Shown: in pieces, positions 1,777-44,405 of the stretch
Layout: every line of letters starts with the position of its first letter
Numbering within the stretch: the first letter of the stretch is position 1
Assembly (NCBI GenBank): GCA_039621445.1
Contig: CP154954.1
Span: 38,773,816-38,837,815 of the forward strand
DNA length: 64,000 bases
Source: Euglena gracilis
Lineage: Eukaryota
Direction: 5' to 3'
Notes under the pieces: model-generated
Seen by the model: the letters and a program-made list of their open reading frames with translations, nothing else
The model's database searches: none
Told to the model about the DNA's origin: nothing
Translations under genes and position numbers: made by a program

Positions 1777-4700
1777 CTGTGATGCGATGCACCCCAACTC
1801 ATATCGGTTGGGCTCTCCTCCGGTCCAGCCCCCCCCCCCCCTAAACAACGCCGGGGTCAGGCTTCTTTTTAAGGCCCTGGGGGGTCCCCCAACCCAGCCT
1901 GGTGCAGGGGGGGGACCCCTCCCCCCAATAAAATCGGGCTGTTTGAGGCCATTTCCCTTCGCGCTGAAACCCATACCCAGGTTTCTGCTGACTTGAAAAG
2001 AAGCCAGGGTCCAGGTGATCCATTTTTGTCCAGCGCAAAGCACCAGCCGGAAAACGTTGCCCCCCCACCAAAGCGGCCAGAATGTCATTTTTGGGCACTT
2101 GGGGGGAAATTTTGCCAAAAATGCCAAAATTTTGGCACAAAGGGGGGGTCCCCAGTGCTTTTTTTCCAGGCAGTGAAAAGTCTTCGAATCTGGGTTTGAT
2201 TTGCTTCCTTTGCTGGGATGGGCCTTGACCCCTCCCTCTCGGGGCGAGGGGTGCCATTGCATCACAGTCAGCCTGTGGCACGGCCAGGCCAGAATGGGAA
2301 ACACGAGGATTAGGGAGGTCGGCACCAACCCACCCATTCCTTGGGGGTGGCCACCAACGGCTCAAAGGGTTCCTCTTGTCGCGGTCAAATTTGGGGGGGG
2401 GGGTCAAAAAAATGTCCCAAAAATCGGTACTTTGGGTAGACCTTCCAGGGGTGCAGATTTGCCCCCCTCCCGATCCGTCCATGCCCCCCCCACCTGCCGC
2501 CATCCTTTGGGGGAAAAAACCTTTGTGAGGGACTAATTCCATAGGGGGTCATTTTTGGAGGCTGAAACTCATTGTGCCAAAAATAGAGGAAAAGGGGGGT
2601 TTGACCCTTGAAACCCTTGAAAGTTGCATGCAACCCTCCAAAACAAAACGTTCAGGCCATTTCCATTTTGGCCTGGGAGGGGGGAGGGGGGGGTGGGGGG
2701 CTGGCTGGGCAATCCTACGAGGGATGAGTTTGCTTCCGGTTGTGGATGCAGAAAGCGGGGGGGGGGGAAACCAGACCCTCTCCTCTGCCTTCCCTCAAGA
2801 GCTAACCCCAAATTCTCACCCAGAACGTTTGCTGGGAAATCTCAAACCCAATGCCGCTATTGGGCGCTGAAGGTGCCTTTTTTTGTTTGCAACTCAAAAA
2901 AAGGCCCGATTGTTGAAAAAAAAATAAAAAAACACCAGACAAAAACTCAACCCTCCAAGGAGTGCCCAGCCAAGGCTTCCAACCCGCCCTCTGTGGGTTT
3001 GCCCTCCCCAGAGGGATGGCACACCCCAGTCTCCAGGGAATCCCTTGAGCGTCCCCCCCACCGGAGGGGGTCAGCTCAAGAAATTCCCTGCCCCAGGCCC
3101 ATGGGCACCGGGCGCCAGCCCCGGGCTTGGGCTTGGGCTTTGGCTGGCGCCAAGGATCCTAAAAAAAAACAACAAAGAAGAATAAAATTGACCCAGTAAT
3201 ATTTCATACAAACACATGCATGTGCACATCTTGGTACATACAACATATTATCCGGATAAAATGGCAGGAAACAAGAATGACGCAATGACTGAGGGAAAAC
3301 TGAATTAAAAATTCCAAGTTTGGGAAAATTGATGATTCATCAATCTGCAGGTGGCGAGGGACTGATAACAAGTTAAAGCCCCCCCCCTGCCCCAACTCCT
3401 CTCAGCACCCCCCAATTGGCAACCCTGGGCCTTCCCTTCCCAGTCATTGAACATCCAAAAAGAGATTGCTCCGTTTGAAACGAAACTTTGAAAATCTGGC
3501 CTGGCCAAACAAAGATGGGGCGCAATCTCATGTTGTGTGAACATGCACCACCAATGCACATAGACACCATTTACCATCCTTGGGCATCAATTGATGGCGA
3601 TGTCCTCTGTTCACCGCAGCTTGGTCTTCAACTTCCTCCACGCCCGGCGCAGGGCGTTTGGTCGTGTGCAGGGCGCAGCACTGGGGCTGTGCGGCACAGG
3701 GGGGGGGGCATTGAGAAGGATACCCCATCCCAAAGGTAGCCACGCCTGTCTGATTTCAGGACATACTCCCACCAAACAATCAATTTAACTGGAAAAAATA
3801 ACAACAGACTGCTCCAAAAAAGAACAGAAAATTCATTTTTTTTGCGTTTCTTCCCCCCCAAAACCTCTTATTTAATGCATTTTATGCCGTTTTTGTGCAT
3901 ATTGCAAAATCGCATTTTGGAGATTTACTCAACAAATTGGCAAAAAGAGGCCAAAAGAAGCACAAAACACCAGGGAAGGGTTTTTTCTGGGTTTCAGGGG
4001 TCCCCAGCAGGGGTTTTTTTTTTAAGACCAGGGGGTGGGAGCCCCCCCCCAGGGGAGATCCGGGGGACCAATCAATTTCCCCAAAGAATGACCAAAAATC
4101 GTGAAAATGCAAAAAACAGCACCTTGTTCAAAAATTTCCGGCGCCTTCGGCGTCGAAAAGTGCATCCCACCACCCCCTGGGGGGACCCCCCCAGGGGGAG
4201 GGGGGGCTCGGTGTTCAAAAAAAAGCAAAAAGAAGGAAAAAAACAAAGAGAAAGAAGAGAAAAGAAGAATGAAAAAGCAGAAAGATAAAAAAAAAAGAAA
4301 GTAATAAAGAACAGAAAGCACAAAAGAATCAAAAAAAGAAAAAAAAAAAAAAAAAAAAACTAAAAAAAAAACCTATTGCCCAGACCCCCCTGCTCAAAAC
4401 TAACGCTCACTTCCTGCCATGAGGGTCCTGGTTGGTCACACCTTCCCCTGGGGGGGACCGGGGGGGGGGCAGGATTTGATAAGGATTTGATAAGGACAGG
4501 TGGGGGGGTGGTCCGAACCCCCCTGCAGGCCAGGAGGGGGGGGTGGGGGGACAACCCCCGATTTAAACCGCCCTCCTTATATCAAACCCTGGGGGGGTGC
4601 CCGGGGGGGGCGACCGTCATTTTGGAATTTTGGGGTCCAAAAAAAAAAACTCGCACCAAAAACAAAAGCAAATCTGGCAGGACACCGGCGGCCCCGGGGA

Positions 4701-7700
4701 GGAGGTTCGTCCCCCCCACCCCGGACAACGAAACTTTTAAAAAAACGTCTGAATTCACGAACCCTGGGCACTGAACCCTGGCTGGACTGGTTCCTGCGCC
4801 GCAGCATCGGCCGGCGGCGCAGCGGGCTCCGGCGGCGGCGCTCCAGGCTGCGCCGGCGGTGCGGCAGGCGGTGCGGCGGCAAGCCATTGCCTTTGATGGG
4901 AGGGACGGGGTGGCCCGGGTGTCCCATCCCCCCAGCTTCAGCTGAACACAAACCCTGAGTTCCTTCGAAGCCACCCCAGCGCTGGAGGAGGGTCCACCGC
5001 TGAAGGAGGGTTGGCCTGGCTGTTCTGCCGCGAAGTGCAGGAAAGGGGGCTGAGGGGTGGGGGGTTAGGCAACGGCCTGTACGGCAGGGGGGTTGCCGAG
5101 CCCGAGGGCTTCGCGAAACCAGGCGATCACGCCAGGCGGTGGGGGCGGTTGTCGGTCCCGCCAGCACTGGAGGGGGCTGCGGGTGTTGATGAAGGGGGCG
5201 GGGGCTTGGCGGCAGGCTTTTTCCCGTTTGAAACTGCACATGTGCCTTGTGCCTCGGGGGGGGGGGGGAGGGAGGATTCAGAGTGTGGCGGAGGTGGGTG
5301 GGTGGAGCACTGAATGTGGCTTTCGGGCAGGCATTTTGGTGCCAGGCAAAAAGGGCCTGGGCGCTCGGCCTGTTTCCTTTCAGCGCCGGAAACCCAGAAA
5401 AGGGCCGTTTTCGGACAAATTTTAGCCAACGGCCAGGCATCCACCAGTCCACCCAGGCACACCCGGCACAGGGCAGCACTGCGCAAAAAAGAAATGTTTT
5501 GGCAAGGCAATGAATGAATAATTTTACTGAAAGTTCGGCGTGGGACAAGGCGTGTGTGACTTGGCTTAAGGCTTGTAGACAATATGACAAGGGGCGGACC
5601 CCACCCTGCCCAGGATGGGGGTGAGGGTGGTCAGGGATTCCCTTCCACCTCCTGAAGGGTTTTTTTGGGGGTTTCGGGGATTCTTTTCAGCCGTTCCATG
5701 TGCCCCGGGGTGGTGTCAGTGTAGTTTGGAATGGCTGGGAAACCACAAGAACAATTTGGGAGGAGGGAGGGTCACGGCACACCCTGCCCCCCCCCCAAAG
5801 AAGGGGCAAAAGAAGGAAAAGAAGGAAATAAGAAAGGAAGCCTGGGTGCAGGACTAGGGCGTGTAGGCCCAGGTCCCCCAGGCCGCCGGCCGCGATGGCG
5901 ATGAGGTGGGCCACCCGCACGCCGTAGTAGGCGGCGTTGTGCCGCCACGCCTGGTCTCACTGGCGGGGGGGGGGGAGGGGAGGGGAGGGGAGGAAGGGGC
6001 CACGCTCAGGCTTCGTTTAACAAACCCCAAGGGCGGTGCCTTGTGCTGTGGGGTGCCTGCCCACAGCAGGCACCCTGGGGGGGTTCGGCCCCTGGTGCCT
6101 TACAACCCAGCCATTTTCCCTTGCAAATGGCCATTTTCAGGTCCTCCCGACACCGGATGTGCTGTAGCACTGCCCAACTCCAAAACTTGACCCCACCACC
6201 CAGGTGGGGATCAAACATACCCCCCCCCCAACCTGCCCACACCACCCACCCTGAGGGGGGGGGGGTGCGGTGCAGGCTTTTGCTAAGGACCGGGGGGGGG
6301 GTACTGGTTAGCCAATCGGCTAGACACTGGAAAAAGTGGACAAGCTAGACCCCCCTCCCGGCCGGGGGGGGGGGGGTTCGGGGGTCCCCCGGACTGGAAA
6401 TTTTCTTTACTCCGGCGCTGTGCGCCGGAGGAAAAATGAGGATTTTAACAGGTTTTGGGCTGATTTTTGTTCCAAAAAATCCCAAAAAATGGCCAAAAAC
6501 GGGCATTTTTGGCCATTTTTGGGGGTCCCAAAAAAATTGGCTATCCCTGGCTATCACTGGCTATCCCTGCTAGCAGACCCCCAGGGGGGTCTGCTAGAAA
6601 TCCCGCTAGCCAAATTTGGACCAGCTGCAGTCCAGCCCCCAGGGGGGGGGGGTACTGCAATCCCTCAAGCAAAAGCCTGGTGCGGTGCGACTTTCCTCAA
6701 AAAGAAGTCTGGCCACGCTGTCAAATGAAAAGCAAATCAAAACACATTTCCAGCCAGGGGGGGGTGGGGGGATTCTGAGGCAGGGCGTGGCCCACCGTAG
6801 CCGTTGCCTTCGACGAGGGGGCGGAGGCGGGCAGCGGTAGCGTGGACGAGGGCGGCGGCGGCTAGCGGCGGGGGGCCCCTTGTGAGGGGGGAACGATGCA
6901 GCCTTTCCATTTCATTTCATTTAAACAGATGCTGAGAGTCTCGGAAACTGTGAGAAAATGAACTGAGGGGTGGAACTTCCCCCCCCCCCTCCGTTTCCAC
7001 TCTCATCTGGGTCCGAAAAATTGAATGTTCCCTTGAAAACTGACAATCAATCACTCAAGTGCAGGTGACCCCCCCAGGAAGGAATACATCAAACAAAACC
7101 AAATGAAAATTTGGCTGCCGCTGAGACATACCCCAGGGAAACTGATGGACAGACAGCGTAAACTTAAATGGACAGGTGCAAGACAGCGCCAAATCTGAAT
7201 CATGTCCAAAGGGGGGGGGCAAGTGGGAATGCCAACGAGATGGGGTGAGGGCAGGATGCGATATGAAGGCAGGTGGGGGGACGACACCCCCCAGGTGTCA
7301 TCCCAGGTGGAGAGAAAGACCCCCAAGGACCCCTGCCCCATGAAAGCAATGGATCAGGTGAGTGGCTTCGGGGGTGGACCCCGGCACCCCCCCCACCCGA
7401 GTGGGTCCGGGGGGACGACCCCCCCCCCCGTTCTATCGAACTCTGGTTGAGAGACAGTTTGACCAACCCACAGAGACACCCCGATCGCGCTGCATGGGTA
7501 GCGGCGGGGCACCCACAGCAGCCGTGGGCGGAGGTAATCCACCCACAGCCAGCCGTAGGTGCCAGCCACCACTGCCCACGCCAACGCATTGGCCAGGTGG
7601 CTGTCGATGGGCGAGATCCGCGACAGGGGCGCGCCGTTCCTCGGTGGACACTTCTGGCCAGGGGTTTTTTTAAAGACCTGGGGGGGGGGGTTCCCAGGGG

Positions 7701-8543
7701 ATCCACTCACTTTTCCCAAAAATGGCCAAAAATCGCAAAAATGCTGAAAACAGCACCTTTTCAAAAATTGGGGGCAGGGGTTTTATTAAGACCGGGGGGG
7801 AGGGGGTCCCCCCACCCACCCACCCCCTGGGGGGGGGGCCGGGGGGGTCCCGGGGGACCCACAAAAAAATGGCCAAAAAATCGCGAAAAGTGCTAAAAAT
7901 AGCATCTTTTCGGCGCCTGCGGCGCCGAAAAGCATATCCCACCCCCCTCTGGGGGGACCCCCCGGGGGGGGGGGCTCGGCCGGACCCACCCCCCCTCCCC
8001 CCCCCTCCCCCCGGGGGTCCACGACTAAAAAAAACCCCTGGTTGGGGGCTTCGCCGGACCCACCCACCTATCCTCCGGGGGTCCAAGACTGAAAAAAAAC
8101 CCCTGCTTCTGGCCAAACCCCCAAAATGGGTCTGTTAGGGATCTGCAACAACCTGTCAGGGAGGAAAATCACTGCAGAGAAGATTTGCCGCTTTGCACTG
8201 AGAAATACGTTTGGGTGTTCACCAACCAGGGTTGGGGGGGTTCTGTTGTGAAAAAATCCTCATCACCCAGTTTGGGGGGTGCTTTCCAAAAAGGAAATCT
8301 GCCTGGCCACCCAGCGCCGCCCTGCGCATCGAGCTGGCGGCGCCGATGGCGGTGAGGAGGGGCACCAGCCACCAGCAGCAGCCACGGAACTGTGAGACGG
8401 GGGGGAAGGGGAATGCAAGAGCACGTTGGGATAATGCCGGAAAGAAGGGAAGAGTTCATTGTTTTAAAGAGGGAGGGGGGCACCCACCCCCCAAAAAGAA
8501 AGGAAGAGGAGGTCCGGGGGGGGGGGGCCGTGCGTTTATGGGC

Positions 8544-8605
<62 letters not shown>

Positions 8606-11600
8606 CTAATAAAAATAATAATGATAGTCGTCGTCATCATCATAATCACCCCCCCTGATTTTCACAAAAGCGTTCAAGTCGGCAAAAATTGGCAAAATGG
8701 CAGAAAATTTGAACATAAAAATTTGGCTTTGGAGCCAGGGTTCTTTTTTTTTGAGACTGGGGGGGAGGGGGTCGGCATCCACCCACCCACCCCTTGGGGC
8801 GCCCCTCCCCCGGGGGTCCCGGGTTTGCCCGAAAATGGCAAAAATGCTGAAAATTGCACCTTTTCGGTGCCTTTGGCGCTGAAAAAGATATGCCCACCAG
8901 CACCTGCACCCACCAACCCCCCCCCCCCGCCCCTGGGGGGAGGGGATCCAAGGGACCCACCCACCCTACCCCCCGGGGGGGGGGGAGGGGGGGCCAAGAC
9001 AAAAAAAACCCCTGAGTGGAGCTTCCATGACAGGATACCGCCCAAACAACAGATTTCCCTCCAATATGTTTTTTGTTGACTCAAGCAAAGAACTGCTTTC
9101 TCTGATCCGTGCGGGAAGTGCCAGGCTGGCTGGAAACATGATAAATACCCAAAAAAACATTTGGCACCAATTTGCGTTTGCACCACCACGACTCCCAGCT
9201 GGAAGAAAGGTGCTGGCTTCCACCTATTGGCACTTTCCACTTGGAGCACATGGGATGGGGGCACATTGAGGAGGCATCACACACCGTGCGGGTCGGTGGC
9301 CTGTTGTGGCGGGTGGCGTTCTGGGCGGCTTCGCGGGCGGCCACAGCTGGTGCCCACTGTGAAGGGAAAGGGGATGTAAGCTTCAAAATCAGAATCGTTG
9401 GCAGGTGCAGATGCATCTGGAGAAGAATGTTTCCCCAAACCCCAAAGAATGCCCAAGGTTCAAGTGAGGATTTTCTTGGGACCGCAGCAGAATTGGAAAA
9501 GGGATTTTGAATTACGCGTAAATTGGACACCAGATGAATGAAACTTGCAAAAATATTACACCTGGCGGGGTTTTTTTTTTAAGACCGGGGGAGGGGGGTC
9601 CCCCCCACCCACCCACCCCCTGGGGGGGGGGCCCCGGGGGGGGGGCCCGGGGGACCCACACAAAAAATGGCCGAAAAATTGCGAAAAGTGCTAAAAATAG
9701 AATTTTTTCGGCGCCTGGGGCGCTGAGAAGTATATCCCACCACCCTCCGGGGGGACCCCCCCCGGGGGGGGGGGCTCGGCCAGACCCACCCATCCAGTCG
9801 TGGACCCCCCCCCCGGGGTCCACGACTAAAAAAACCCCTGACCTGGCTCCCAAAGTTTTTTCACGCCTGGCAAAATATTTGCCTCAACGTGTCAGAATTT
9901 TTCCCCACAGCCAAAGCCCCCCCCAAATCGGGGCATTTAAGGGCATTTTTTTGAAAAAATTTTGGTGTTTCGCACCAGGTCCCCTTGGGTGGTCAAAAAT
10001 CTTCGGCACTTGTCGGGAGGGGCAGCAGACTCACCAAACCCCCCCGCCCCAAACTTAAAAAATCTCTGGTCAGCATCCACTCACTCCCAGGGTTGCAGGT
10101 GGGCACTTTGGGGGTAAATCAGGGTTCGATATAAGGACAGGTGGGGGGGGGGGTCCGGACCCCCCCCTGCGGGCCAGGAGGGGGGGGGGGGGGGGGGGGC
10201 ACCCCCCCCCCCTAAACAGGTGCGCGGTCAGGGTGGCCGAATTTTCGGCCCGGCGCGAAGCGCCGGGCCGAAAATTTTTGACCCCCCAAAACGACCCAAA
10301 GTGCCATTTTGGGCACTTTTTGGGCAAAAATGTGCCAAAAATGCAAAAAATTTTCGGCGCGAAGCGCCGGAGGAAAAAATTGACCCTTTTTGGGGGGGGT
10401 CAATTTTTGCCCCCGAGGGTCGGTCCGGACCCCCCTTGCAGGTGGGGGGGGGTGGTCCGGACCCCCCCCTGCGGGCCAGGAGGGGGGGGGGGGGGGGGGG
10501 ACACCCCCCCCCACCTAAACCATGTACGCCCTCCTTATATCGAACCCTGGGGTAAATATGGAAGCCTATAAATTTTTCGTCACTTTGCGAAAGCAAGGGA
10601 GCAAGCACGCGTCATTTCTGGCAACTCATGGCCACCCCCCCCCCCCGCATGGTGAGGGGCACAGCCACCCCCCCCCCATGCACCAACCTCACCCCATTGA
10701 AAGACAAAATGAACACACCGGTGCATAGAGGCACCATGGGCACAATGGCACCATGGTGCCATTCACATCCGTCTCCTTCAGTCCAAAGCGATGGTGGTGT
10801 GGCCACGCGCTTAATTTCTCATTTTATTTTTTAATTTTCTCAATTTCTTTTACGTTTGAAGACTTCAGACGCGCCCGGCATCAAACTTCATTTCATAATT
10901 TCCTGTGTTAATGAAGCCCTCAATGTTTTTCACAACGTGTTTCCAATTAAAAGAAAAACTTTTTTTTAAAAAAATAGGGATGGACCAGGGGCTGCTGGGC
11001 CCCAACCCAGAAAACCCCACAGCTGCAGGGCTTGGGTTCTTCCCAGGTCAAAAGAACCCAAACTGTAGAGTGGTGTGCAACACAGGCTGGGGGGATGAAT
11101 GAGCTTGGGGTGGAGATAACCGGGGGGGGGGGGTGGGGGGCCTGGGCAACGGTGATTCACAGCCAACCCATTAGTTGGATTCCATTGAACAAAGCAAATA
11201 AGCGCGTGGGTGGCAGCGGGCGCAGAGGGTGGGGTCGGCCACCGCGTGCAGCGCCTGGAGGCGCTTCGCGGTGGCCTCCTCCGCCGTCTCCACGATCCAC
11301 CAATACTCGCCGGCAGGCTGAGTATTGGTGGAAGGCTGCGATGAAGAGTTTCTTTTTTTTTTTAACTCAAAGAGGGTCTCAAACAGGGACAGCAACAGAG
11401 GTGTCCCCTGAAGCTTTTATGGATTCGGAAGGCACCCAAGGTGGAAAAACTCCACCATATGAAACCCCTCACGCTCACCATTGTTCATCGTCTTCGACCC
11501 TTTCTTCAAACCCCCAAAGTTGTGTCAAATCAAACAACACCCGGCCTGCTCGAGGAGCTGGCGGATGCCGCGGTAGGGGGCGATGACGGGGTTGAAGAGC

Positions 11601-14600
11601 CGCTCAATCCAGGTGGGGGCAGGGTGCAGCTGGCGGTGCCCCCAGGCCCCATTGGAGCGGAGGGGGTTGGGGTTCAGACTGGGGGGGGGCACAAAGCACC
11701 AGGCTGAAAATGTTGCCCCTCCCCCAGAATCGGCCGAAAGAGTTACTTTGGGCACTTTTGGGGCAAAACTTGTCAAAAAAAAGTCCAAAATTGCCTAAAG
11801 AAACCCACAGAAGTGGAAAATTTTGACTTTTGGGTTCTTGGTCAGGACCCCCCACCAGGGTTTGGTATAAGGACAGGTGGGGATGGGGTGGTCTGGATCC
11901 CCCCCTGCGGGCCAGGAGGGGATGGGGGGGGACACCCCCCCACCTTAACAGTGGCGCGGTCTGGGTCACCGAAAAACTTTGACCCCCCCAAAACGACCAA
12001 AAGTGCCATTTTGGGCACTTTTTGGGCAAAGTGTTGCCAAAAAATGCAAAAAATTTTCGGCGCGAAGTGCCATAGGAAAAAATTGACCTTTTTGGGGGGG
12101 TCCCGGGTTCCCCCCCAGCGTTGGTCCGGACCCCCCTGGCACGTGGGGGGGGGGGTGGTCCAGACCCCCGTGCGGGCCGGGGGGACACCCCCCACCTAAA
12201 CCATGTACGCCCTCCTTATATCAAACCCTGCCCCCCCCCTACCACACCACCTCAACAAAAACCGAAGGGCGTCCCATTTCTCCTGGGTACCATGCTTGTG
12301 CTTACCGACCGGGGGGGGGTGGGTGCTATAGGGTGCTTGCCCCTAGCAGGCACACCGGGGGGATAGGGGTCCGGGCCGGACCCAGAAAATTTTCATTGAA
12401 AATGGCCTTTTTTGGGCCCCCGGCGCCTTTGGCGCCAGGGTCGGAGGGGGGTGCCTGCTAGGGGCAGGCACCCCCCAAAACCCTACCCCCCCCCCGAGGG
12501 AGGGGTCGGATTGGGTGCTATGGGGTGCCTGCCCCTAGCACCCACCCCACCCCCCGTGGGGTAGGCACCCGACTAAGCACAAGCCTGCTGGGGACCCTGG
12601 ATGAGGTAAAAATCCCATTGAAAAGGTTTCAAACCCCCTTTTCATAATTTTATACGCTTTTGAGAAAAAATCAGGGGTTTGGGGCTCAAATTCTATCAAA
12701 GAAAAAACTCCTCCAAACCCCATTTTTTGTTTCAATTTGGACCATTTTATTTGTTCTCGCACCAGAAAAATTTTACTCTTCCTCCCCCCTGAGTTTCATT
12801 TCCTCGAAGATTCTAGAGATGGGTCACAAAGTCTGTTGCCCATAAATAGCCACCATCCGCTCGGATCATACATCTCTTTAAGGACCCCGGGGGGGGGGGT
12901 ACTGGGCTAGGGCTAGAAATTTGGGCTGGCTAGAAATTTGGGCTGGCTAGCCCCCCCCCCCGGGGGGGGCTAGGCCCCGGCTGGACCCGAACCGGGGCGA
13001 GCTGGACTGAAATCGGAAAAATGCCCAAAAATGACCTGCAGAACACAGCTTTGAAAAAATGATGCATCTGAAACCCCCCAAAAATGCCCCAAACGCCCCC
13101 CAAACCCCATTTTTGGCCACTTTTGAACACAATTTTTCAAAAAATTTCGGCGCAAAGCGCCGAAAAATTTTGTGCTGGACCCCCCAAAAAAGGGGCTGGC
13201 TAGCTGGGCTAGCAGCACCCCCCCCCCGGGGGGGTGCTGCTGCGGCTGGGCTGGGCCCAAATCGGGGGTGGCTGCAGCCGCCCCCCCGGGGGGGGGGGGG
13301 TCGCAAAACCTTAGAGAGATGTATGGCTCGGATCATCAGCTCAGGGCTCAAAGGCATCATTGTCCACTGACCCTGTCCCTTGCACATCACCCTGGCCACT
13401 CAGGCCAACTGAACAACTGCTTTTTGAGCATATTTTCTCCACTTTCCAGAATTCTGAAATCCCCTTCGGCCATTTCCGGAGGACCTGGGGGGGGCAAAAC
13501 CAAAAAAAACACCCCAATGGGGTCTGTGTGCCGGACCCGCTCCTGCTGCGCGGCGTCGTCGTCCGCTTGCTGGAGGCGCTTGGCGGTGACGACGTTGGCG
13601 GCACGCGGGGTCTGTGGAAGGACAAAAGGGAACAAAGCATAAACGTGGCATAGACGCCACATTTATGGGGGGGAGGTAGCGTGGGTGGGTCCGGCCGAGC
13701 CCCCCCGGGGGGATATGTTTTTCGGTGCCAATTTTTTTTGAAAAGGTGCTATTTTTTGAGCATTTTTTCGCGATTTTGGGGGGATAACTGAGTGGTTCCC
13801 CCAGAGTCCCCCTGGGGGCCTTGCATAAACCCACCCAAATGACTTGGCGGGGCTTCCTCCTGGCAGTGGCCGAATAACTTGGCGGGGGGGGGGAGGGGCA
13901 AATAAAATGGTTCCAATGACTTAGCACCCCCTTTTTAAGGCAAAGTTCCTTCACGATGCTGAAAAAGGTGCCCGAATAACCTGGCAAGGGGGCAGGGCCA
14001 AAAGTTGTTTCCAAAAACCTGGCACCCCGCCAGATTGTCTGGGGGGGGGTTATGCCGGAAAACAGTTTTGAGCAGTTTTTGGGTTGGGGGCCTCGCTGAA
14101 ACAGCACACCAAGCGAGAAAAGAAATGGGGAACCTGGGACTGCCCCACCCAGCCAGGCACCCCCCCCCCACCAGGGGAGATTTTTTCACTTTACATAAAA
14201 ATGCGCTTTTTAATAAAAAAATGCAAAAAAATGGTCAAAAAAAAGACAAAATTTTTGGTTTTGGGGGGAAATCGAGGGCAAGAAAGAAGCTTTCATGATC
14301 AAAAAAAATTCCAGTGAATCCAAAAGAACACCAGGGGAAAAAACCAGGGCTCTCAGGGCTCATGAACAGACTCCACAACCCCCCAAATTGGCAAATTTAA
14401 ACAAAATTTGTCAAAAAATGGCATTTCTTGATGATGGTTGCATGCTTGTGCTTACCAACCGGGGGGGGGGAGGGGGGTGGCTGGGTGCTATAAGGTGCCT
14501 GCCCCTAGCAGGCACACCCCGGGGGGTGGGGCCCAGGGGGGGACCCAGAAATTTTTCATTGCTTGGGGCAGGCACCCCCCCAAAACCCTCCCCCCCCCCC

Positions 14601-17600
14601 TCTGGGGGGGTCAGATCGGGTGCTATGGGGTCAGGCTTTTCCTTCAGGACCCCGGGGGGGGGTACTGGCTGCCAATTGGCTAGACACTGGAAAAAGTGGA
14701 CTAGCCAGACCCCCCTCCCCCCGGGGGGGGGGTCCGGGGCATGCTTGTGCTTACCAACCAGGGGGGGGGGGGGGGTGCTATAGGGTGCCTGCCCCTAGCA
14801 GGCACACCCCCCCCCGGGGGGGGATAGGGGTCCGGGCCGGACCCAGAAAATTTTCATTGAAAATGGCCTTTTCCGGGCCCCTGGCGCCAGGGTCGGAGGG
14901 GGGTGCCTGCTAGGGGCAGGCACCCCCCAAAACCCTACCCCCCCCCCCCCCCAGGGAGGGGGCGTGCCGGGTGCTATGGGGTGCCTGGCCCTAGCCCCCT
15001 TCCCCCCCCCCCCCGTGGGGTAGGCACCCGACTAAGCGCAAGCCTGGTCCGGGGGTCCCCCGGACTGAAAAAAAATTTTCCTCCGGCGCAGCGTCGGAGG
15101 AAAAATGAGTTTTTTAACAGGTTTTGGGCTGATTTTGTTCCAAAAATTCCCAATAATGGCCAAAAACGGGCATTTTTGGCCATTTGGGGGGGTCCCAAAA
15201 AAATTTTGGCGCTTCGCGCCGGTCACTGGAAAAAATTTTCACTAGCTAGCCCTGCTAGCAGACCCCCCCCCCCGGGGCCCACTAGCCAAATTTGGACCAG
15301 CTGCAATCCAGCCCCCTCCCCCGGGGGGTACTGCAATCCCTTAAGCAAAAGCCTGTATGGGGTGCCTGCCCCTAGCACGCACCCCCCCCCCCCCGTGGGG
15401 TAGGCACCTGACTGAGCACAAGCCTGGATGGTTGACGCCAGATATCAGTTTTTGTGTGTGTGTGGCCGAAAAAGTCGTCCCCAATGTCCTTCATTTTTCT
15501 TTCTGGAGGAAAAAGCCAAAATTTGGTTGGTTGGCCTGAGAGGGAGATTTATAAATGGGGGGGGGGGTAAAAGTGGGAGTGGGAGTGGGAGTTAAAAGCA
15601 GTGGACCATTTTCCGCCATGCGCAAAACCTCCAATCAACAACCATTTTGGCAGTTTTCAGCAAAAAATTGTCGAACATCGTCAAAAGCTTTTGAATGATG
15701 GGTTTTTTAGGACCTGGTCCAGACCTGCCGACCCCCTGGGGGGCCAGGAGACCCACCAACCGTTGGGCTAATTTTGGGGACCCAAAATTTTTCGGCGTGC
15801 CAAAAAATGGAGAAAAATGTCTCCTTTCGGGCTTCCCACTCGGACCAACCACCCAAAATCCAGCTAAAATGGGCCGAATGAAAATATCTATATATATAAT
15901 ATCTATGTAAACCCCCCAAATATAACCCCCCCCCCAAATACAAACCCCCCCCAAATATAAAACCCCCCCTGAGGACCTTGAAATCCCGCCCAAATATAAA
16001 ACCCCCCCTCCGGCGCGAAGCGCCGGAAGGAAATTTTTTCGACAATTCTCTCCAGAAATTGTGATTTTTTGGCAGATTTGGGAACACTTTTTACCAAAAA
16101 CATGTCAAAATTGCTCCTTCGCCCGAAAAATGAAGTTTTTGGACCCCCAAGGGTGGGCGTATTTGTGATTTTGGACCAAAAAAATGACTACCGGAGCCCG
16201 CCGGGAAGTTGATTTTTCCGACCAAATATAAACCCCCCCAAATATAAAACCCCCCCTCGGGGTCTTGAAAGTTCCGCCCAAATATAAAACCGGGGGGTTT
16301 TATATTTGGGGGGGGGGGTTATAAAACTCGGACCACCCACCCATACCACCACACCACCCAAAATCCAGCTAAAATGGGCCGAATGAAAATATTTTCCAGA
16401 TAAAAAAAAACCAGCGCAAAGCACCAGAAAATTTTTTGAGGGACTTCACAAAATGAAATTGTATTTTCAGGCAACTTTTTTTTTTCACCAAAAGACGATA
16501 AAAACAGAAATTTGCCAGCGCAAAGTGCCGGGAAAAATTTTTGGGTCCCTGGACCACCCTTCGGCCCTCGGCAGTGATCTTGACGATAAGGAAACCAGGG
16601 GGAAAACAGAAACCAGGGGGTTCAGACTGCTTTGAATTTTCAACCAAATGCACAAAACAGATTGCAAAAGCAAAAGCGCAACACAAGAGGCAAACCTGGC
16701 GGGCGAGGAGGAGGACAACGGCGGCAGCAATGGTGGCCACGGCCCGCGCTGCCCAGCTGCGGAGGGTGGGGCGCGGAGGCTGTGGGGCTGGTCGGCGGTG
16801 CTGGAGGCGTTCCGCTGGAGCTGTGGGGGCGGTGACGGTGAGCTGCGGGCTGGGGTGGACGCTGTCGGCGGTGATGTTGGCGATGATGGCGGCGTAGGGG
16901 GTGGCGTTGGTGGGCTGGAAACGGACGGGGATAAAGCTGCTTGGAATCAGAGGTTTGAGGACCCGGAGGGTCTGGACCATATCATTGCTTGTCGACCCGA
17001 GGGGGGGGGTCATTCTCCACTTTCAAAAAACTAGTCAGTCACTTTCAAAAAACTAGTCAGTCACTTCTTAAAAACCAGTCACCCTTCCTACCCCCCGCAC
17101 GGGGAGGGGGGTCGGTTGCTTTGGCCACTCACCTGAAAAGGCCCCTCCAGCCACTGGGCCAAAAAAAATGGCCAAAAAAACAAAGGATTTTTGGTCAAAA
17201 ATCCAAAAAAAAATTGTGAATGTATATGGGGGCCGTGTACCCCCTCATCCCCCCAGGGGTTTCTTTTTAAGACCGAGGGGGGAGGGGGACACTTTTCCCC
17301 TGAAAAGGCCAAAAAAATCACGAAAAATGCATGTTCAAAAAAAAAGCACATCCCTCCCCCCTCTGGGCGCCCCCCCCGGGGGGGGCTCAGCCGGACCCAC
17401 CCACCCTTCTCCACCCCCTGAAGGTCCAAAACTAAAAAAAAACCCCTGGTCCCCCCCCCGCGTCCTGAACCGCCCCACTACTGTACTGTCCATGCTTGTG
17501 CTTACCAACCGGGGGGGGGGGAGGGGGTGGGTGGGTGCTATAGGGTGCCTGCCCCTAGCAGGCACACCCCCCCGGGGGGGGGGGGATGGGGTCCGGGCCG

Positions 17601-20600
17601 GACCCAGAAAATTTTCATTGAAAATGGCCTTTTCCGGGCCCCCGGCGCCGGGGTCGGAGGGGGGTGCCTGCTAGGGGCAGGCACCCCCCAAAACCCTACC
17701 CCCCCCCCGGGGGGGTCGGATCGGGTGCTATGGGGTGCCTGCCCCTAGCACCCCCCCCCCGTGGGGTAGGCACCCGACTAAGCACAAGCCTGGTACTGTC
17801 ATTTCACTTTTGCTCAATAAAAAAAACCCTTACATTCGACAATGGAAAAATATCCATGCCAGTCGAAGTTTCAAAGGGCAACTGTGCAGCCAAATGCAAA
17901 ATTTTCCGAACGGAGGCAAATACTTTGGGGATAAAATGCAAACATTTTTGAGATAAAATGCAAACAAATTGGTGGGGGAAGTGCAAAAATACATGGTCTG
18001 AAATGCGAAAAATTCAGTTGTTGTCTTCCAAAAAAACAAAAACTGACACCGCTTAAAGCAGCCTCAGGAGGGGGCAGTGGAAGTGGAAAAGTAGCGGGGG
18101 GTGCGGAAGGCCATTCGAGGCTCACTGAGGGGCTCTGGCAGGGGCTCATCGAAAGGCTCTGGCTCGGGCTCGTCGAGGGGCTCTGGCTCGGGCTTGTCGA
18201 GGGGCTCTGGCTCGGGCTCGTCGAGGGGCTCTGGCTCGGGCTTGTCGAGGGGCTCTGGCTCGGGCTCGTCGAGGGGCTCTCGCTCGGGCTCGTCGAGGGG
18301 CTCTGGCTCGGGCTCGAGGGGCTCTGGCTCGGGCTCGTCGAGGAGCTCTGGCTCGGGCTCGTCGAGGGGTTCTGGCTCGGGTTCATTGAGGGGCTCTGGT
18401 TCAGGCTCATCAAGGGGCTCTGGTTCGGGCTCATCAAGGGGCTCTGGCTCAGCTTCGGCCTCATCGAGGGACGGTGGCTCAGCCTCATCAAGGGGCTGTG
18501 GCTTGGCCTCGTCGAGGGCCTGGGGCTCCGGCTCAGCAAGAGACTCTAACTCCTGCTCCTGGAGGGACTCTGGCTCAGGCTGGGTCTCATCGAGGCGTTC
18601 AGGTTCGGCCTCGTCGAGGGGCTCTGGCTTGGCCTCAGCAAGGGGCTGGGCCTCCAGCTCAGCAGGAGGCTCTGGCTCCGGCTCATCGAGGTGCTCAGGG
18701 TCCAGGAGGGCTGCAAGGGGCTGCGGGGCCGGGAGGGCCAGCCGGGCTGGGGGGGCCGGGAGGGCCAGGTGGACTGGGGGGGCCGGGAGGGCCGGCCGGG
18801 CTGGGGGGGCCGGGAGGGCCGGCCGGGCTGGGGGGGCCGGGAGGGCTGGCCGGGCTGCGGGGGCCGGGAGGGCCAGGCGGGCTGGGGGGGCCGGGAGGGC
18901 CGGCCGGGCTGGGGGGGCCGGGAGGGCCGGCCGGGCTGGGGGGGCCGGGAGGGCCAGGTGGACTGGGGGGGCTGGGAGGGCCAGGGAGGCTGGGGGGGCC
19001 GGGAGGGCCAGGCGGGCTGGGGGGGCCGGGAGGGCCGGCCAGGCTGGGGGGGCCGGGAGGGCCAGGCGGGCTGGGGGGGCCGGGAGGGCCGGCCAGGCTG
19101 GGGGGGCCGGGAGGGCCAGGCGGGCTGGGGGGGCCGGGAGGGCCAGGCGGGCTGAGGGGGCCGGGAGGGCCGGCCAGGCTGAGGGGGCCGGCCAGGCTGA
19201 GGGGGCTGGGGGGGCCAGGGAGGCTGCGGGGGCCGGGAGGGCCGGCCGGGCTGGGGGGGCCGGGAGGGAGGGCCGGCCGGGCTGGGGGGGCCGGGAGGGC
19301 CGGCCAGGCTGAGGGGGCCGGCCAGGCTGAGGGGGCTGGGGGGGCCAGGGAGGCTGCGGGGGCCGGGAGGGCCGGCCGGGCTGGGGGGGCCGGGAGGGCC
19401 AGGCGGGCTGAGGGGGCCGGGAGGGCCGGCCGGGCTGGGGGGGCCGGGAGGGCCAGGCGGGCTGAGGGGGCCGGCCAGGCTGAGGGGGCCGGGCAGGCTG
19501 AGGGGGCTGGGGGGGCCAGGGAGGCTGCGGGGGCCGGGAGGGCCGGCCGGGCTGGGGGGGCCGGGAGGGCCGGCCAGGCTGAGGGGGCCGGGAGGGCCGG
19601 CCAGGCTGAGGGGGCCGGCCAGGCTGAGGGGGCTGGGGGGGCCAGGGAGGCTGCGGGGGCCGGGAGGGCCGGCCGGGCCGGGGGGGCCGGGAGGGCCGGC
19701 CGGGCGGAGGGGGCCGGGAGGGCCGGCGGGCTGGGGGGGCGGGGAGGGCCGGCCGGGCTGAGGGGGCCGGGAGGGCCGGCCGGGCTGAGGGGGCCGGGAG
19801 GGCCGGCCGGGCTGAGGGGGCCGGGAGGGCCGGCCGGGCTGGGGGGGCCGGGAGGGCCAGGCGGGCTGAGGGGGCCGGCCGGGCTGGGGGGGCCGGCAGG
19901 GGGGGCCATGGGGCCGGAAGGGCCGGCAGGGGCCGCTGTGGGGCTGGTGGGGCTGGGAGGGCCAGCTGTGGGACGTGGATAAGGCTGCTTCATGCAAACA
20001 TGCTTTTGCTTACTGACCGGGGGGAGGGGGGTGGGTGGGTGCTATAGGGTGCGGGGTGCCTGCCCCTGGCAGGCACACCCCCCAGGGGGGGGGTAAACCC
20101 CCCCAAAATAAGACCGGGGGTCCATTTCATGGGTCGGTTGCTGGAGAGCCCGAGGGGGGGGGGGTCTTGTTCATGGGCAGGGTCCATTTTATGGATTTTT
20201 GCTGGAAATTTTTTCGACACCCCAAAATGTCCAAAAATGCCTCTCCAAATACCAATTTTCGAAAAACTTGGCACTCGCGCCAGACAAATAGGAGAAAATA
20301 TGGTGAATTGTGTGAAAACAGTCCCAAAATGGCAGATTTGCCCCCCCAAATGTCCCATTTTTCAAAAATCCAGCGCTTCGCACCGGCAGGGGGGGTCTTA
20401 TTTATGGGGGGGTCCATTTCATGGATTTTTGCTCGGACTGACCGGGGGGGGGGGTGGTCTTATTTTGGGGGGTCTATTTTATTGGGGGGGGAATTACCAT
20501 GCCCCCCCCCCCCCCTAGTTAGTCACCCCCCCCTATTAGTCACCCTTGGGCCCCAGGCAAAAAAATTTTTTTCGAAGGGAAATATTTTTCTTTAAAAAAC

Positions 20601-22044
20601 GCCGAATTTGGCCATCGGATTTTTTTTGATGGTTGCCATCCATGAAAAGTGCCCTGGAATGCCCAAAAACAACCTTGAAACCCCCAAGAATTGGGGCAGG
20701 GGGGGCAAAATTTGGGTCTAAATTGACCCCCCCCCCCCCGAGTTAGTCCCCCCCCTATTAGTCACCCTTGGCCAAATTCCCCTCCCAAGGGGGTGACTAA
20801 CTAGGGGGGGGGGGCACGGAATTTTGGGGGGGGTTAGGGGTCCGGGGGGATTTTTCATTGAAAAAATGGGCTTGTCCGGACCCGCGGCGCCTTCGGCACC
20901 AGGGTCGGAGGGGGTTCCTGCTATGGGCAGGCACCCCCAAAACCCTGCCCCCCTGGGGGGGGGGCGGATCGGGTGCTGTGGGGTGGGCACCCGACAAAGC
21001 ACAAGCCTGCATGCAAATGTTGCCTTCAGAAAGACCCCCTCTGATTTGGCAGGGCCTGGGACCCCTGAAAGAAGCAGTTCTTTTGGTTTAAAAAAAGACA
21101 GCAAGAAAACTTCGGGGGGGGGCATGGCTTTGGCTGCCAGAAAGGTGGCCAAATGCATGGTTGGTGGGACCATGATGACAACAAACATGCACACCACACG
21201 GTTCGATTTCTGGCTCATTTGCAAAAAAAAGATAACCTGAATTGTGGATATTGTCTGAGAGCTCGTGGTTGTGTGGAATTACTGAGGCAGCCCTGGGCGG
21301 GGCAGGGGAGAAGGGCGAAGGGGAGAGGGGCGGGGAGAGCGGAGGGGAGGGTGAATTTTGGAGGGGGTGGGGGGAGGAGGGATTGCTGCCACCATGCAAT
21401 CGCTCCACAAGTCGGACAGAACTCATTAGAATGGCAAAACCGGCATCCTGGCGAGGAATGTGTGCAAATACACCCGGTTTTATCACCAAAAGTGTGCCCA
21501 AATCGCCCTTGTGGTTGTGTCATGGATTGCGCACATCATGGACATTTTCTCTGGTGGAGGTCTTTACAATTTGCATTGATTTACATCACAATCTGTGAGA
21601 TCCACCCAGGAGCAATTGTGTGGCTTGGGGCCGGCGGTCACCGGAGTGGGAGGGCGGGGAAGGGCGGCGCCGCCGGTGATCACCAGGTGATGCACCGGGG
21701 CGGCGGGGAGGGCGAATTTTGGAGGGGGGAGGAGGGATGGCTGCCGGCATGCAATTGCTCCAAAAGTAAGACAGAAACTCATTAAAATGAGGAATGGAAA
21801 TATCAGGTACACAATACACAACACCAGGTTCACAATGGTACACCAGGTTTTATCGCCAGAAAGTGTACCCAAATCCCTTGGTGGTTTTGTCATGGATTGC
21901 TCACAATATGGATATTTTCCCTGCTGGAGGTCTTCCAGTGAGAGATCCACCCCAGGAGCAATTGTATGGCTTGGCGGTCACCAGGTGATCGCCAGGCACT
22001 GGAGCACTGGGGCGCTGGGGGGGACTGTGCCACTGTACCGGTAG
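1411..22044 (-). CDS. Multi-exon gene (at least 19 exons, about 1,300 aa, N-terminus not found): Pro-rich and EPLDEPEP repeat region followed by about 5 hydrophobic segments; unknown function, probable membrane or surface protein
   Basis: Hand-joined exons: 22044-21972, 21742-21626, 21387-21299, 19974-18070, 16926-16696, 13611-13530, 11637-11552, 11308-11243, 9356-9285, 8389-8309, 7653-7496, 6893-6793, 5940-5848, 5207-5083, 4874-4770, 3691-3615, 3158-3094, 2279-2230, 1776-(1411). All 18 junctions stay in frame using GT-AG or the paired-end 3+5 rule. Exons are GC3-rich and mostly lack the long homopolymers of the introns. The 18070/16926 link and the last three exons are less certain. Confidence 0.75.
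2230..2279 (-). CDS. Probable exon [16 protein letters not shown]
   Basis: CTG-GCCGT acceptor; GGG|GTCAAG donor; phases fit. Confidence 0.5.
3094..3158 (-). CDS. Probable exon [21 protein letters not shown]
   Basis: Poly-T AG acceptor; GGG-CAG donor; phases fit both neighbours. Confidence 0.5.
3611..3691 (-). CDS. Exon [26 protein letters not shown]; ends at TGA 3613-3611 or splices at CG|GTGAAC (3615)
   Basis: CTG-TGCCG acceptor; high GC3. Confidence 0.75.
   Translation of the reverse strand, partial: HSPSAAPCTRPNALRRAWRKLKTKLR
4770..4874 (-). CDS. Exon [35 protein letters not shown]
   Basis: In frame; exact donor ambiguous among three phase-0 RNN-CAG sites. Confidence 0.7.
5083..5207 (-). 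CDS. Exon [41 protein letters not shown]
   Basis: Donor GTA-CAGGCCGTTGCC pairs over 12 bp (2 G-U) with GGCAATGGCTTG-CCGCC; splicing avoids an in-frame TAA. Confidence 0.85.
5848..5940 (-). CDS. Exon [30 protein letters not shown](Q)
   Basis: Very strong GC3 bias; donor ACC-CAG-GCTT pairs with AAGC-CTG-CCGCC. Confidence 0.85.
6273..6679. mobile_element. hAT-like MITE family F1 (TIR CAGGCTTTTGCT)
   Basis: Exact 8-bp TSD GTGCGGTG at 6265-6272 and 6680-6687. Confidence 0.9.
6793..6893 (-). CDS. Exon [33 protein letters not shown](D)
   Basis: In frame by the 3+5 rule; donor GGC-CAC-GCCCTG pairs with CAGGC-GTG-GCGGC. Confidence 0.8.
7496..7653 (-). CDS. Exon [52 protein letters not shown](P)
   Basis: Acceptor CTG-GCCAG supplied by a MITE end plus TSD; donor ATGCAGC pairs perfectly with GCTGCAT at 6902-6896. 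Confidence 0.85.
7659..8105. mobile_element. hAT-like MITE family F4 (TIR CAGGGGTTTTTTT) at an intron/exon junction
   Basis: Exact TSD CTTCTGGC at 7651-7658 and 8106-8113; related copies near 600, 4008, 8736, 9565, 17255 and 58070. Confidence 0.9.
8309..8389 (-). CDS. Exon [27 protein letters not shown]
   Basis: CACAG acceptor; GGC-CAG donor; hydrophobic segment. Confidence 0.8.
8545..8621. repeat. (TAA)n microsatellite
   Basis: Seen directly. Confidence 0.95.
9285..9356 (-). CDS. Exon [24 protein letters not shown]
   Basis: CACAG acceptor and GTGTGT donor, phase 0/0. Confidence 0.8.
10120..10549. mobile_element. hAT-like MITE family F3 (TIR CAGGGTTCGATATAAGG)
   Basis: Exact TSD GGGTAAAT; related copies at about 11856-12230 and 4470-4591. 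Confidence 0.9.
11243..11308 (-). CDS. Exon [22 protein letters not shown]
   Basis: GAG-CAG-GC / GC-CTG-CCGGC intron upstream; GCG|GTGGCC donor. Confidence 0.85.
11552..11637 (-). CDS. Exon [28 protein letters not shown]
   Basis: Non-canonical introns on both sides, in frame; high GC3. Confidence 0.85.
12291..12587. mobile_element. MITE family F2 (CATGCTTGTGCTTA...TAAGCACAAGCCTG)
   Basis: TSD CTGGGTAC / CTGGGGAC (7/8). Confidence 0.85.
13530..13611 (-). CDS. Exon [27 protein letters not shown](H)
   Basis: CACAG acceptor; donor ACA-CAG-ACCCCATTGG pairs with CCAATGGGGC-CTG-GGGGC. Confidence 0.85.
14441..15426. mobile_element. Three-level nest: F2 (14441-15426) containing F1 (14632-15355) containing F2 (14740-15046)
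   Basis: Three exact 8-bp TSDs: GATGGTTG, TATGGGGT, GTCCGGGG. Confidence 0.92.
16696..16926 (-). CDS. Exon [15 protein letters not shown]...[17 protein letters not shown] (hydrophobic segment)
   Basis: Strong GC3 bias; CAG|GTTTGC donor. The start could instead be the AG acceptor at 16914 or the ATG at 16980. Confidence 0.8.
17491..17792. mobile_element. MITE family F2
   Basis: Exact TSD GTACTGTC. Confidence 0.9.
18070..19974 (-). CDS. Giant repeat exon: (ALPAPPARP)n then (EPLDEPEP)n
   Basis: Stop-free frame absent from the ORF track for most of its length (no start codon). Reads VPQLALPAP...[22 protein letters not shown]...[22 protein letters not shown]. In-frame TGA at 18066-18064 if unspliced. 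Confidence 0.8.
19999..21009. mobile_element. F2 MITE carrying further nested elements
   Basis: Exact TSD CATGCAAA; internal AAATAAGACC and TTAGTCACC repeat elements. Confidence 0.85.
21299..21387 (-). CDS. Exon [29 protein letters not shown]
   Basis: Paralogous to the previous exon; donor GCC-CAG-GGCTGC pairs with GCAGCC-TTA-TCCAC. Confidence 0.7.
21626..21742 (-). CDS. Exon [38 protein letters not shown](K)
   Basis: In frame on both sides under the 3+5 rule; part of a duplicated exon-intron module. Confidence 0.7.
21972..22044 (-). CDS. Exon [24 protein letters not shown](K)
   Basis: Pyrimidine tract + CACAG acceptor; donor AGC-CAT-ACAATTGCTCC pairs with GGAGCAATTGC-ATG-CCGGC at the next acceptor. 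Confidence 0.65.
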
Positions 22045-37982: not shown

Positions 37983-38349
<367 letters not shown>

Positions 38350-43173: not shown

Positions 43174-43242
<69 letters not shown>

Positions 43243-44064: not shown

Positions 44065-44405
44065 AAGCTGGCCATCACTCGTGGCCCAAAATTGGCAAGC
44101 ACCTATGGCCCAAAGCTGGCCAGCACCCGTGGCCCAAAACTGGCCAGCACCTGTGGCCAAAACTGGCCAGCGGCTGTGGCCCAAAACTGGCCAGCACCTG
44201 TGGCCCAAAACTGGCCTGCACCCGTGGCCAAAAACTGGCCAGCACTTGTGGCCAAAGACTGGCAAGCACCTGTGGCCCAAAACTGGCCAGCACTTGTGGC
44301 AAAAACTGGCCAGCACCTGTGGCCAAAGACTGGCCACCACCATCTGTGGCCCAAATCTGGCCAGCACCTGTGCTGGCCACCACCTGTGGCCCAAAATTGG
44401 CCACC
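44065..44405. repeat. ~23-bp minisatellite GGCCCAAAACTGGCCAGCACCTG(T)
   Basis: About 14 degenerate units; explains the 414-aa ORF. Confidence 0.9.

Follow-up and report, generated by a model that had tools for sequence, protein, structure and literature searches.

The element at 5082→4875 on the minus strand of the window (the whole 64,000-nt stretch of Euglena gracilis DNA analysed) is probably a euglenid-type nonconventional intron with MITE-like geometry and a worn target-site duplication (TSD). We give this reading, in which transcription, splicing and MITE descent are all inferred from the sequence, a probability of roughly 55%. The terminal helix would serve as the cis-element that joins both splice sites, with one cut 3 nt ahead of the CAG arm and the other 5 nt beyond the arm that pairs with it. 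As these spacers add up to eight (3 + 5 = 8), excision would take out exactly 8 nt more than the element enclosed by the helix, and would amount to an RNA-level reversal of a transposon insertion with an 8-bp TSD. MITEs with CA(G)…(C)TG ends and 8-bp TSDs are abundant beside the intron in the window. Given the removal geometry and these resident elements, the 6/8 match between the flanks of the intron is best read as a worn TSD, to which the C|R context of the cut (the bar marks the cut, R a purine) also contributes.

The putative intron (4875..5082, minus strand, 208 nt) starts with GTA+CAG and ends with TTG+CCGCC. Its arms, 5079–5067 and 4892–4880, are inverted repeats of 13 nt with Watson-Crick complementarity at 11/13 positions, and the other two positions are both G·U in the minus-strand RNA (A·C on the plus strand); the terminal stem described in the initial annotation is thus present as a 13-bp helix. 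The 5' arm (5067..5079) opens with CAG (+4 to +6 of the intron), and the 3' arm (4880..4892) has TTG as its last bases at -8 to -6, with a G·U pair where the C-G of CTG is usual. The minimum-free-energy fold of the intron contains this helix (z = -3.1), and none of 200 shuffles folded equally well. The left flanking 8-mer (5080..5087, minus strand) consists of five exon nucleotides and the first three of the intron, the right one (4872..4879, minus strand) of the last five intron nucleotides and three exon nucleotides. On recounting, the two agree at 6/8 positions, the figure originally given, and both mismatches are T/C. Because positions 3–6 of the 8-mer are the same on both flanks, five boundary placements yield one identical mRNA. 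The borders of the focal intron are GT at the start and CC at the end, which do not form a GT/C-AG pair. No related copy of the intron or of its arms was found within the 64-kb window.

Fit of the listed introns to the euglenid splicing code

Five further putative introns had been listed with the focal one, all on the minus strand, and their flank identities of 5, 5, 5, 5 and 4 of 8 were reproduced. Two of them, at 5208..5847 (4/8) and 11309..11551 (5/8), carry CAG…CTG. The intron at 11638..13529 (5/8) contains three nested MITEs, and its helix comprises 12 Watson-Crick pairs, one G·U pair and one mismatch over 14 positions, in agreement with the long one-mismatch stem attributed to it. The putative introns at 16927..18069 (5/8), where TGA…TTA replaces CAG…CTG, and at 19975..21298 (5/8), which has CAG…TTA and holds the MITE 19999–21009, are paralogous at both ends. 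In 18069→16927, bases 3–5 are an in-frame TGA, so that the upstream ORF could simply stop there.

With boundaries set by rule and not from cDNA, all six introns show one layout: three nucleotides, CAG (TGA in 18069→16927), helix, a CTG-like motif, five nucleotides and an exon that starts with a purine. Their lengths span 208–1892 nt. A pyrimidine closes the upstream exon and likewise the intron in 6/6 cases each, and the downstream exon opens on a purine in 6/6; the intron itself begins with a purine in 5/6. These junction bases agree with the published junction model of Milanowski et al., which has Y|R at both junctions (PMC3935182, PMC4770533). All six helices have 9–12 Watson-Crick pairs and one or two G·U pairs over 14 positions, and the three introns that were folded each show it in their minimum-free-energy structure. 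Pooled over the six helices, G·U positions number 10 vs 7 for A·C, an uninformative count with no clear strand asymmetry. GT-AG borders are absent from the other five introns.

The splicing code 5'-N3CDG…CH'GN5-6|R has been defined genetically in Euglena, according to PMC12501133. Exact pairing of CDG (+4 to +6) with CH'G (-8 to -6) occurs in three of the six introns (13529, 11551 and 5847); the departures are CAG/TTG with its G·U pair in the focal intron, CAG/TTA in 21298 and TGA/TTA in 18069. The focal intron, having TTG in place of CTG, misses the strict published code by one base and would belong to the 'CAG-nnn' class, which is reported there to make up 6.6% of E. agilis introns. As the six introns fit the published Euglena layout, their stem would correspond to the known splice-defining helix.

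A scan of both strands for the code combined with at least 12 of 13 helix pairs returned 74 candidates. Beyond the MITEs and three listed introns these are mostly G/T-run artefacts, for which reason they were excluded from the statistics. Pairing at 13/13 is found in only eight of the 74, including two intact MITEs and the focal element. An early scan for CAG/CTG with G·U permitted was overwhelmed by the Pro-rich array at 18.07–19.98 kb and was discarded.

Resident MITEs and the identity of the flanks

The window contains 1,530 CA…TG inverted-repeat pairs at complementarity of at least 10/12. Fifteen such pairs have 8/8 flanks, vs one or two in three offset controls, and 13 of the fifteen are credible. 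The duplications measure exactly 8 bp, with an identity of only 2.3/8 in the outer flanks, and the elements fall into multi-copy families. A 122-bp MITE at 4470..4591 (TSD 7/8, in a G run) lies past the putative stop codon. The MITE at 6007..6711 (CAG…CTG ends, TSD 8/8) has the MITE 6273–6679 (8/8) nested within it, and the one at 7659..8105 (8/8) likewise encloses 7775–8040 (7/8). The MITE at 10120..10549 has inverted ends matching at 14/14 and a TSD of 8/8. Several elements are located within large introns: 11856..12230 (same family as 10120–10549, TSD 7/8), 12291..12587 (CAT…CTG ends, 7/8) and 12867..13325 (CAT…ATG ends, 8/8) in intron 13529→11638, 17491..17792 (8/8) in 18069→16927, and 19999..21009 (8/8), which lies 24 nt from the 3' end of 21298→19975. 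A three-level nest, 14441..15426 enclosing 14632–15355 enclosing 14740–15046, has TSDs of 8/8 at each level. Farther away are a larger element of 1408 bp at 43791..45198 (CAA…TTG ends matching at 12/14, TSD 8/8) and a MITE at 60551..60934 (inverted ends 14/14, TSD 8/8) that belongs with 6273–6679 in one family.

Of the CAG…CTG MITEs whose TSD matches at 7/8 or better, nine of nine conform to the splicing code when read in one orientation or in both. We tentatively propose that the 3+5 splicing geometry exactly reverses the insertion of resident CAG…CTG MITEs, so that a MITE landing in an exon might be born removable if position 6 of its TSD is a purine; the source families would still lie beside and inside the introns, and the large introns would have grown by nested insertion. 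No fresh MITE in the window was found to interrupt an exon demonstrably, and no MITE breaks a strong periodicity island; comparison of fresh MITEs with ORF interruption is uninformative, since open frames cover nearly every site in this GC-rich sequence. Profile searches (nhmmer) with four MITE families gave no match in 4875–5082 and a single weak match (E = 0.035) in 5208–5847, and none of the listed old introns is homologous to the four modelled families. Arm-motif searches allowing up to two mismatches found no partners in the window. No transposase domain was detected in 284 of the 296 ORFs of at least 90 aa, the part of the set that was scanned; the other 12 ORFs lie past 61.4 kb.

The six introns were picked in the initial annotation, which itself noted a poor match in other introns, and the P values given here are therefore optimistic. 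Pairs of 8-mers drawn at random from this strand and region match at a mean of 2.05/8; against these, the observed sum of 30/48 has a P of about 1e-5, or about 5e-4 if the random pairs, too, must have C|R at the cut. In a stricter control, the left flank of one intron was paired with the right flank of another. Such cross-pairs average 3.8/8 vs 5.0/8 for matched pairs, and 15 of 720 permutations score at least as high as the real pairing (P = 0.021, n = 6). That mismatched pairs already stand at 3.8/8 is due to C|R at the cut and the C-rich flanks. The paralogous introns 21298→19975 and 18069→16927 are not independent, and dropping either of them gives P = 0.03–0.04. By position, the fifth base is C in 12/12 8-mers, the sixth is the same purine on both flanks in 5/6 introns (2.2 expected), and positions 3 and 8 agree between the flanks in 4/6 introns vs about two expected. 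With positions 5 and 6 left out, P becomes 0.10. A window-wide unbiased scan found 41 pairs with 5/8 flanks (43–50 in controls) and 15 with 6/8 flanks (6–16 in controls); the only excess is at 8/8.

Several of these figures favor the alternative that the introns are genuine nonconventional introns whose flanks resemble each other through a shared cut-site context (pyrimidine|purine, here C|R) and C-rich Pro/Ala coding sequence rather than through ancestry, past MITE status being left aside. The invariant C at position 5, the height of the cross-pair mean over the random local one, the rise of P without positions 5 and 6 and the lack of a 5–6/8 excess in the unbiased scan all point in this direction. 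A Y|R consensus for the two junctions is moreover in print (PMC4770533), and GT-AG introns of E. agilis have boundary repeats too, with 148,480 slidable vs 8,519 non-slidable introns in Dataset S7 of PMC12501133. Against it, the pair-specific excess persists at positions 6, 3 and 8 and in the overall P, and the resident MITEs show that 8-bp duplications around CAG…CTG ends are made in this very genome. We consider context as the whole explanation rather unlikely, and retain the worn TSD as the preferred reading of the focal flanks.

The proposal that old introns retain fossil TIRs and decayed TSDs holds up in part: the stems are real and their geometry is that of the resident MITEs, but the flank identity is mostly C|R and C-rich context, and the 'decayed TSD' part is weak. 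As to the suggested gradient from fresh MITE to old intron, the unbiased scan shows no excess at 5–6/8, and the old introns show no homology to the four MITE families modelled. The window fits the published idea that such introns may descend from transposons; the age series is not proven.

Reading frames and coding evidence

Under the nonconventional model, the putative upstream exon (5083..5207, minus strand) has an open frame with its GC2 minimum in the model-predicted frame, and the putative last exon (4758..4874, minus strand), which is Ala/Pro-rich, runs to a stop codon at 4757–4755, with a periodicity that does not support its frame. Reading frames remain open after intron removal, as do frames across junctions commonly throughout the window. 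The GC2 minimum falls in the predicted frame in 4/5 downstream exons and introns are flat; within the 4–22 kb interval, the strongest periodicity islands of the minus strand coincide with the proposed exons. Homology searches were negative. A word-index protein search with the upstream exon 5205→5083 gave 22 word-sharing candidates, none at E <= 0.01, and an exhaustive phmmer search with the 185-aa ORF 16926→16372 gave no match among 1.84 billion representatives. In the Pfam scan of 284 of the 296 ORFs of at least 90 aa, only a low-complexity collagen-repeat match reached the curated cut-off, tRNA and Rfam scans of the window were empty, and no marker gene came to light.

The frames also bear on whether the focal element might be a conventional or 'intermediate' GT…AG intron of 192 nt, 5082→4891, with an incidental helix. 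It opens with GT and closes at 4891 with AG behind a pyrimidine-rich tract, the resulting downstream frame is open to 4585, and the last exon of the nonconventional model draws no support from periodicity; the ambiguity is a known one, as 13 of 55 published nonconventional introns start with GT or GC (PMC4770533). However, such an intron would leave to chance a 13-bp helix in the exact +4/-6 register and the C|G cut context, and its downstream frame shows no coding-like periodicity and crosses an A/T-rich, non-coding-looking stretch into the MITE 4470–4591. We judge this alternative improbable. More improbable still is that there is no intron at all, only the relic of an old inverted repeat or MITE in a non-coding stretch, with frames open by chance in GC-rich low-complexity sequence: the searches run found no homologs or Pfam domains, junction-spanning open frames are common and stems are frequent when all CA…TG pairs are counted, but in the neighboring exons the full code goes together with the Y|R context, a continuous frame and a coding-like periodicity in GC, and few code-compliant candidates pair as completely as the focal element.

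Known systems and the origin of nonconventional introns

The preferred reading, a nonconventional intron of MITE-like geometry, places the element closest to the nonconventional introns of Euglena gracilis and E. agilis. These share with it the CAG at +4 to +6, the complementary arm at -8 to -6 and the end-joining helix, with spacers of 3 nt and 5 nt. In both, each cut follows a pyrimidine and precedes a purine, short direct repeats let the boundary slide along the junctions, and length varies. The differences are the focal TTG (G·U) for CTG and, among the listed introns, two that end in TTA and one that starts with TGA. The nonconventional introns of euglenids leave the transcript as circular RNA, as the putative introns described here would. 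A close parallel to the proposed series is intron 4 of gapC in E. agilis strain ACOI 323, a recently gained intron with an 8-nt direct repeat at its junctions, longer than in older introns, which is read in PMC4770533 as a possible trace of double-strand-break repair. It shows the same pattern of eight when fresh and fewer when old, and its age was fixed by strain comparison.

TSDs of 8 bp are made by the hAT and P superfamilies. The resident elements resemble MITEs with 8-bp TSDs in being short and non-coding (122–1408 bp), with TIRs and an exact TSD, multi-copy and nested. Two Merlin families with 8-bp TSDs are reported from E. gracilis, but Merlin ends are described as 5'-GG, in contrast to CAG, CAT or CAA in the window (PMC8101967). 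While MITEs as a class form multi-copy families, the focal intron stands without a related copy in the 64 kb. Introners and MITE-derived non-canonical introns of Amoebophrya, Polarella and Micromonas, as described in PMC11282704 (see also PMC7789003), likewise have inverted ends and TSD-like repeats, one copy of which is excised along with the element. Introners proper come as numerous near-identical copies with GT-AG splicing. All these introns are multi-copy and use different or spliceosomal machinery, whereas the old introns here are single-copy and non-GT-AG. TSDs in Amoebophrya are 3–5 nt long (PMC11282704).

Earlier publications already contain a MITE origin, TSD-like repeats and, for a recently gained intron, an 8-nt repeat; the proposed age series adds little to the last of these. 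In the literature consulted, mostly outside subscription journals, we found neither intact CAG…CTG MITE families with 8-bp TSDs in a euglenid nor the 3+5 = 8 link. The origin of nonconventional introns in Euglena was still termed unclear in 2025 (PMC12501133), and this window does not settle it. What it offers is a single locus that pairs introns of the published code with intact MITEs of the same ends and the same 8-bp-duplication geometry. The hypothesis of a MITE origin thereby becomes concrete: it can be tested genome-wide, and by knock-in with a natural MITE.

Architecture of the putative introns

The focal element, a putative nonconventional intron of 208 nt on the minus strand (5082→4875), is bounded by a 13-nt inverted repeat with arms at 5079–5067 and 4892–4880 (minus strand), in which 11 of 13 positions are Watson-Crick pairs and the other two are G·U in the minus-strand RNA but A·C on the opposite strand. 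This helix closes the minimum-free-energy fold of the element (z = -3.1), and none of 200 shuffles folds as well. The 8-mers just outside the arms are identical at 6/8 positions, both differences being T/C, confirming the terminal stem and flanks described for this intron in the initial annotation. Since positions 3–6 of the 8-mers are identical, five boundary placements yield the same mRNA. The flank matches claimed for five other putative minus-strand introns, 13529→11638, 11551→11309, 21298→19975, 18069→16927, and 5847→5208 (5, 5, 5, 5, and 4 of 8, respectively), were reproduced exactly, and each of their helices has 9–12 Watson-Crick and 1–2 G·U pairs over 14 positions.

All six introns share the same layout, namely 3 nt, a CAG-type triplet, the helix, a CTG-type triplet, 5 nt, and an exon starting with a purine. 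The 5' triplet is CAG in five introns and TGA in one; at the 3' side the focal intron has TTG, two others have TTA, and the rest have CTG. C precedes the cut in 12/12 cases, and five of the six introns begin with a purine. At the sequence level, euglenid nonconventional introns are built in this way, and it is on this ground that the window is called euglenid-like; a splicing code for such introns was defined genetically by Nomura et al. 2025 (5'-N3CDG…CH'GN5-6|R, PMC12501133) and pyrimidine|purine junctions were described by Milanowski et al. (PMC4770533). Given this architecture, the "fossil TIR" of these putative introns is first of all a predicted functional, splice-defining helix. Introns 21298→19975 and 18069→16927 have paralogous 5' starts and 3' ends, the latter extending over the first four exon bases, which suggests that an exon-intron unit was duplicated and that the two did not arise by separate insertions.

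As an alternative, the focal element may be spliced as a GT…AG intron (5082→4891), given that it starts with GT and that a pyrimidine-rich tract leads to an AG that lies 16 nt before the nonconventional 3' boundary. With these two candidate acceptor sites, it could be an "intermediate" intron. As a putative nonconventional intron, the focal element belongs to a known class and looks ordinary within it.

The case for the flanks being exons is indirect. Frames stay open after the proposed splicing in three small gene models, GC is lowest at codon position 2 of the predicted frame in four of five downstream exons and flat in introns, and the proposed exons coincide with the strongest minus-strand periodicity islands between 4 and 22 kb. 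The expected periodicity is absent from the last, Ala/Pro-rich exon, which follows the focal intron, and protein searches found no homolog of the exon upstream of this intron or of the 185-aa ORF 16926→16372. We also observe a minus-strand open frame of 641 codons (18067-19989, 79% GC), made of Pro-rich repeats and then acidic repeats (12 protein letters, not shown). Provided that intron 18069→16927 is real, it runs in frame into ORF 16926→16372, which has N-glycosylation-like sites and a hydrophobic stretch, and this would suggest a mucin-like surface protein; no homolog was found.

Resident MITEs and their 8-bp duplications

The window is eukaryotic sequence of ~45–60% GC with an extreme repeat content (489 repeat pairs by self-comparison, one Pro-rich array left out). 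tRNA and Rfam scans gave zero matches, and the Pfam scan, covering 284 of 296 stop-to-stop ORFs (90 aa or longer), those up to 61.4 kb, gave a single match at the cut-off, a low-complexity collagen repeat within the Pro-rich ORF. The window also includes a near-perfect palindrome of 226 bp (23211-23436, 98% self-complementarity), two shorter ones (50810-50931, 122 bp, 97%; 51633-51730, 98 bp, 90%), and a satellite with ~160-bp units in both orientations (62217-63194, 38426-39148, 40021-40299, 41800-42390). Mutually related short-period tandem arrays (38000-38350 and 43174-43290, 85–100% identity) occur as well, together with a large inverted duplication (40021-41183 vs 41230-43098) whose segments are 86% (40021–40877 vs 42079–41230) and 91% (40531–41183 vs 42433–43098) identical.

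Outside the Pro-rich array, we scanned for CA…TG-ended inverted repeats with complementarity of 10/12 or more and a spacing of 40–3000 bp, and compared the resulting 1,530 pairs with three offset controls. Flank identity of 8/8 was observed in 15 pairs (controls 1–2), 7/8 in seven (2–6), 6/8 in 15 (6–16), and 5/8 in 41 (43–50). Of the 15 pairs at 8/8, 13 qualify as credible MITEs (297–1408 bp); 26262–26317, a hairpin, and 56795–56840, a poly-C case, were discounted. The duplication spans 8 bp and no more, the adjacent outer 8 nt matching at only 2.3/8, and the MITEs group into multi-copy families. Runs of at least 8 G or C, common window-wide, are often MITE target sites (e.g. 4462–4469, 11848–11855). 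In a three-level nest (14441–15426 > 14632–15355 > 14740–15046), each level has a perfect 8-bp TSD, making the relative insertion order unambiguous. Other MITEs lie within introns 13529→11638 (11856–12230, 12291–12587, 12867–13325), 21298→19975 (19999–21009), and 18069→16927 (17491–17792), so that much of the length of these long introns comes from later insertions.

All nine CAG…CTG MITEs with a TSD of at least 7/8 conform to the published code in one orientation or the other, five of them in both, and the eight MITEs with CAT or CAA ends do not. With 3 nt on one side of the element and 5 nt on the other, the intron layout takes out 8 nt in addition to the element, the length of exactly one TSD, and this is the window's strongest argument for a transposon origin. 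In a literature search covering few subscription journals, we found neither a paper on intact MITE families of a euglenid genome that combine CAG…CTG ends with 8-bp TSDs nor the 3+5 = 8 link stated in print.

Flank identity as a proposed record of age

The six matched pairs, a set picked in the initial annotation, total 30/48 identities, giving P ~1e-5 against random same-strand, same-region 8-mer pairs (mean 2.05/8) and P ~5e-4 once C|R at the cut is required (mean 3.14/8). The flanks are C-rich, with C always at position 5, and left and right flanks taken from different introns already agree at 3.8/8. The observed sum is reached by 15/720 permutations (P = 0.021); P is 0.03–0.04 when one of the paralogous introns 21298/18069 is left out and 0.10 when positions 5 and 6 are removed. 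The pair-specific excess lies at positions 3, 6, and 8. The unbiased CA…TG scan shows no 5–6/8 flank population above background, the old introns show no detectable homology to the MITE families, and no fresh MITE in the window demonstrably splits an exon. Thus, the stems and flank counts behind the proposed age series of fossil TIRs and decayed TSDs hold, but a gradient from fresh MITE to domesticated intron is plausible and not demonstrated here.

Relation to the MITE-origin hypothesis

The MITE-origin hypothesis goes back to Milanowski et al. 2014 (PMC3935182) and was restated by Nomura et al. (PMC12501133), who found direct repeats at the boundaries of 84.4% of introns, a figure that counts conventional introns too. 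A 2024 review (PMC11282704) places TIRs at positions +4 to +6 and -8 to -6 and draws TSD-like repeats at the junctions. A gapC intron found in a single E. agilis strain has an 8-nt direct repeat, longer than those of older introns (Milanowski et al. 2016, PMC4770533), which is essentially the age argument made for this window. In E. gracilis, 8-bp TSDs are also reported for two Merlin families (PMC8101967), although Merlin ends are described as 5'-GG and those of the MITEs here are CAG, CAT, or CAA. The initial interpretation is partly supported and largely in print already. The most useful new point is that living MITEs with 8-bp TSDs and the same end geometry as the introns occur in their neighbourhood, which makes the old MITE-origin hypothesis directly testable.
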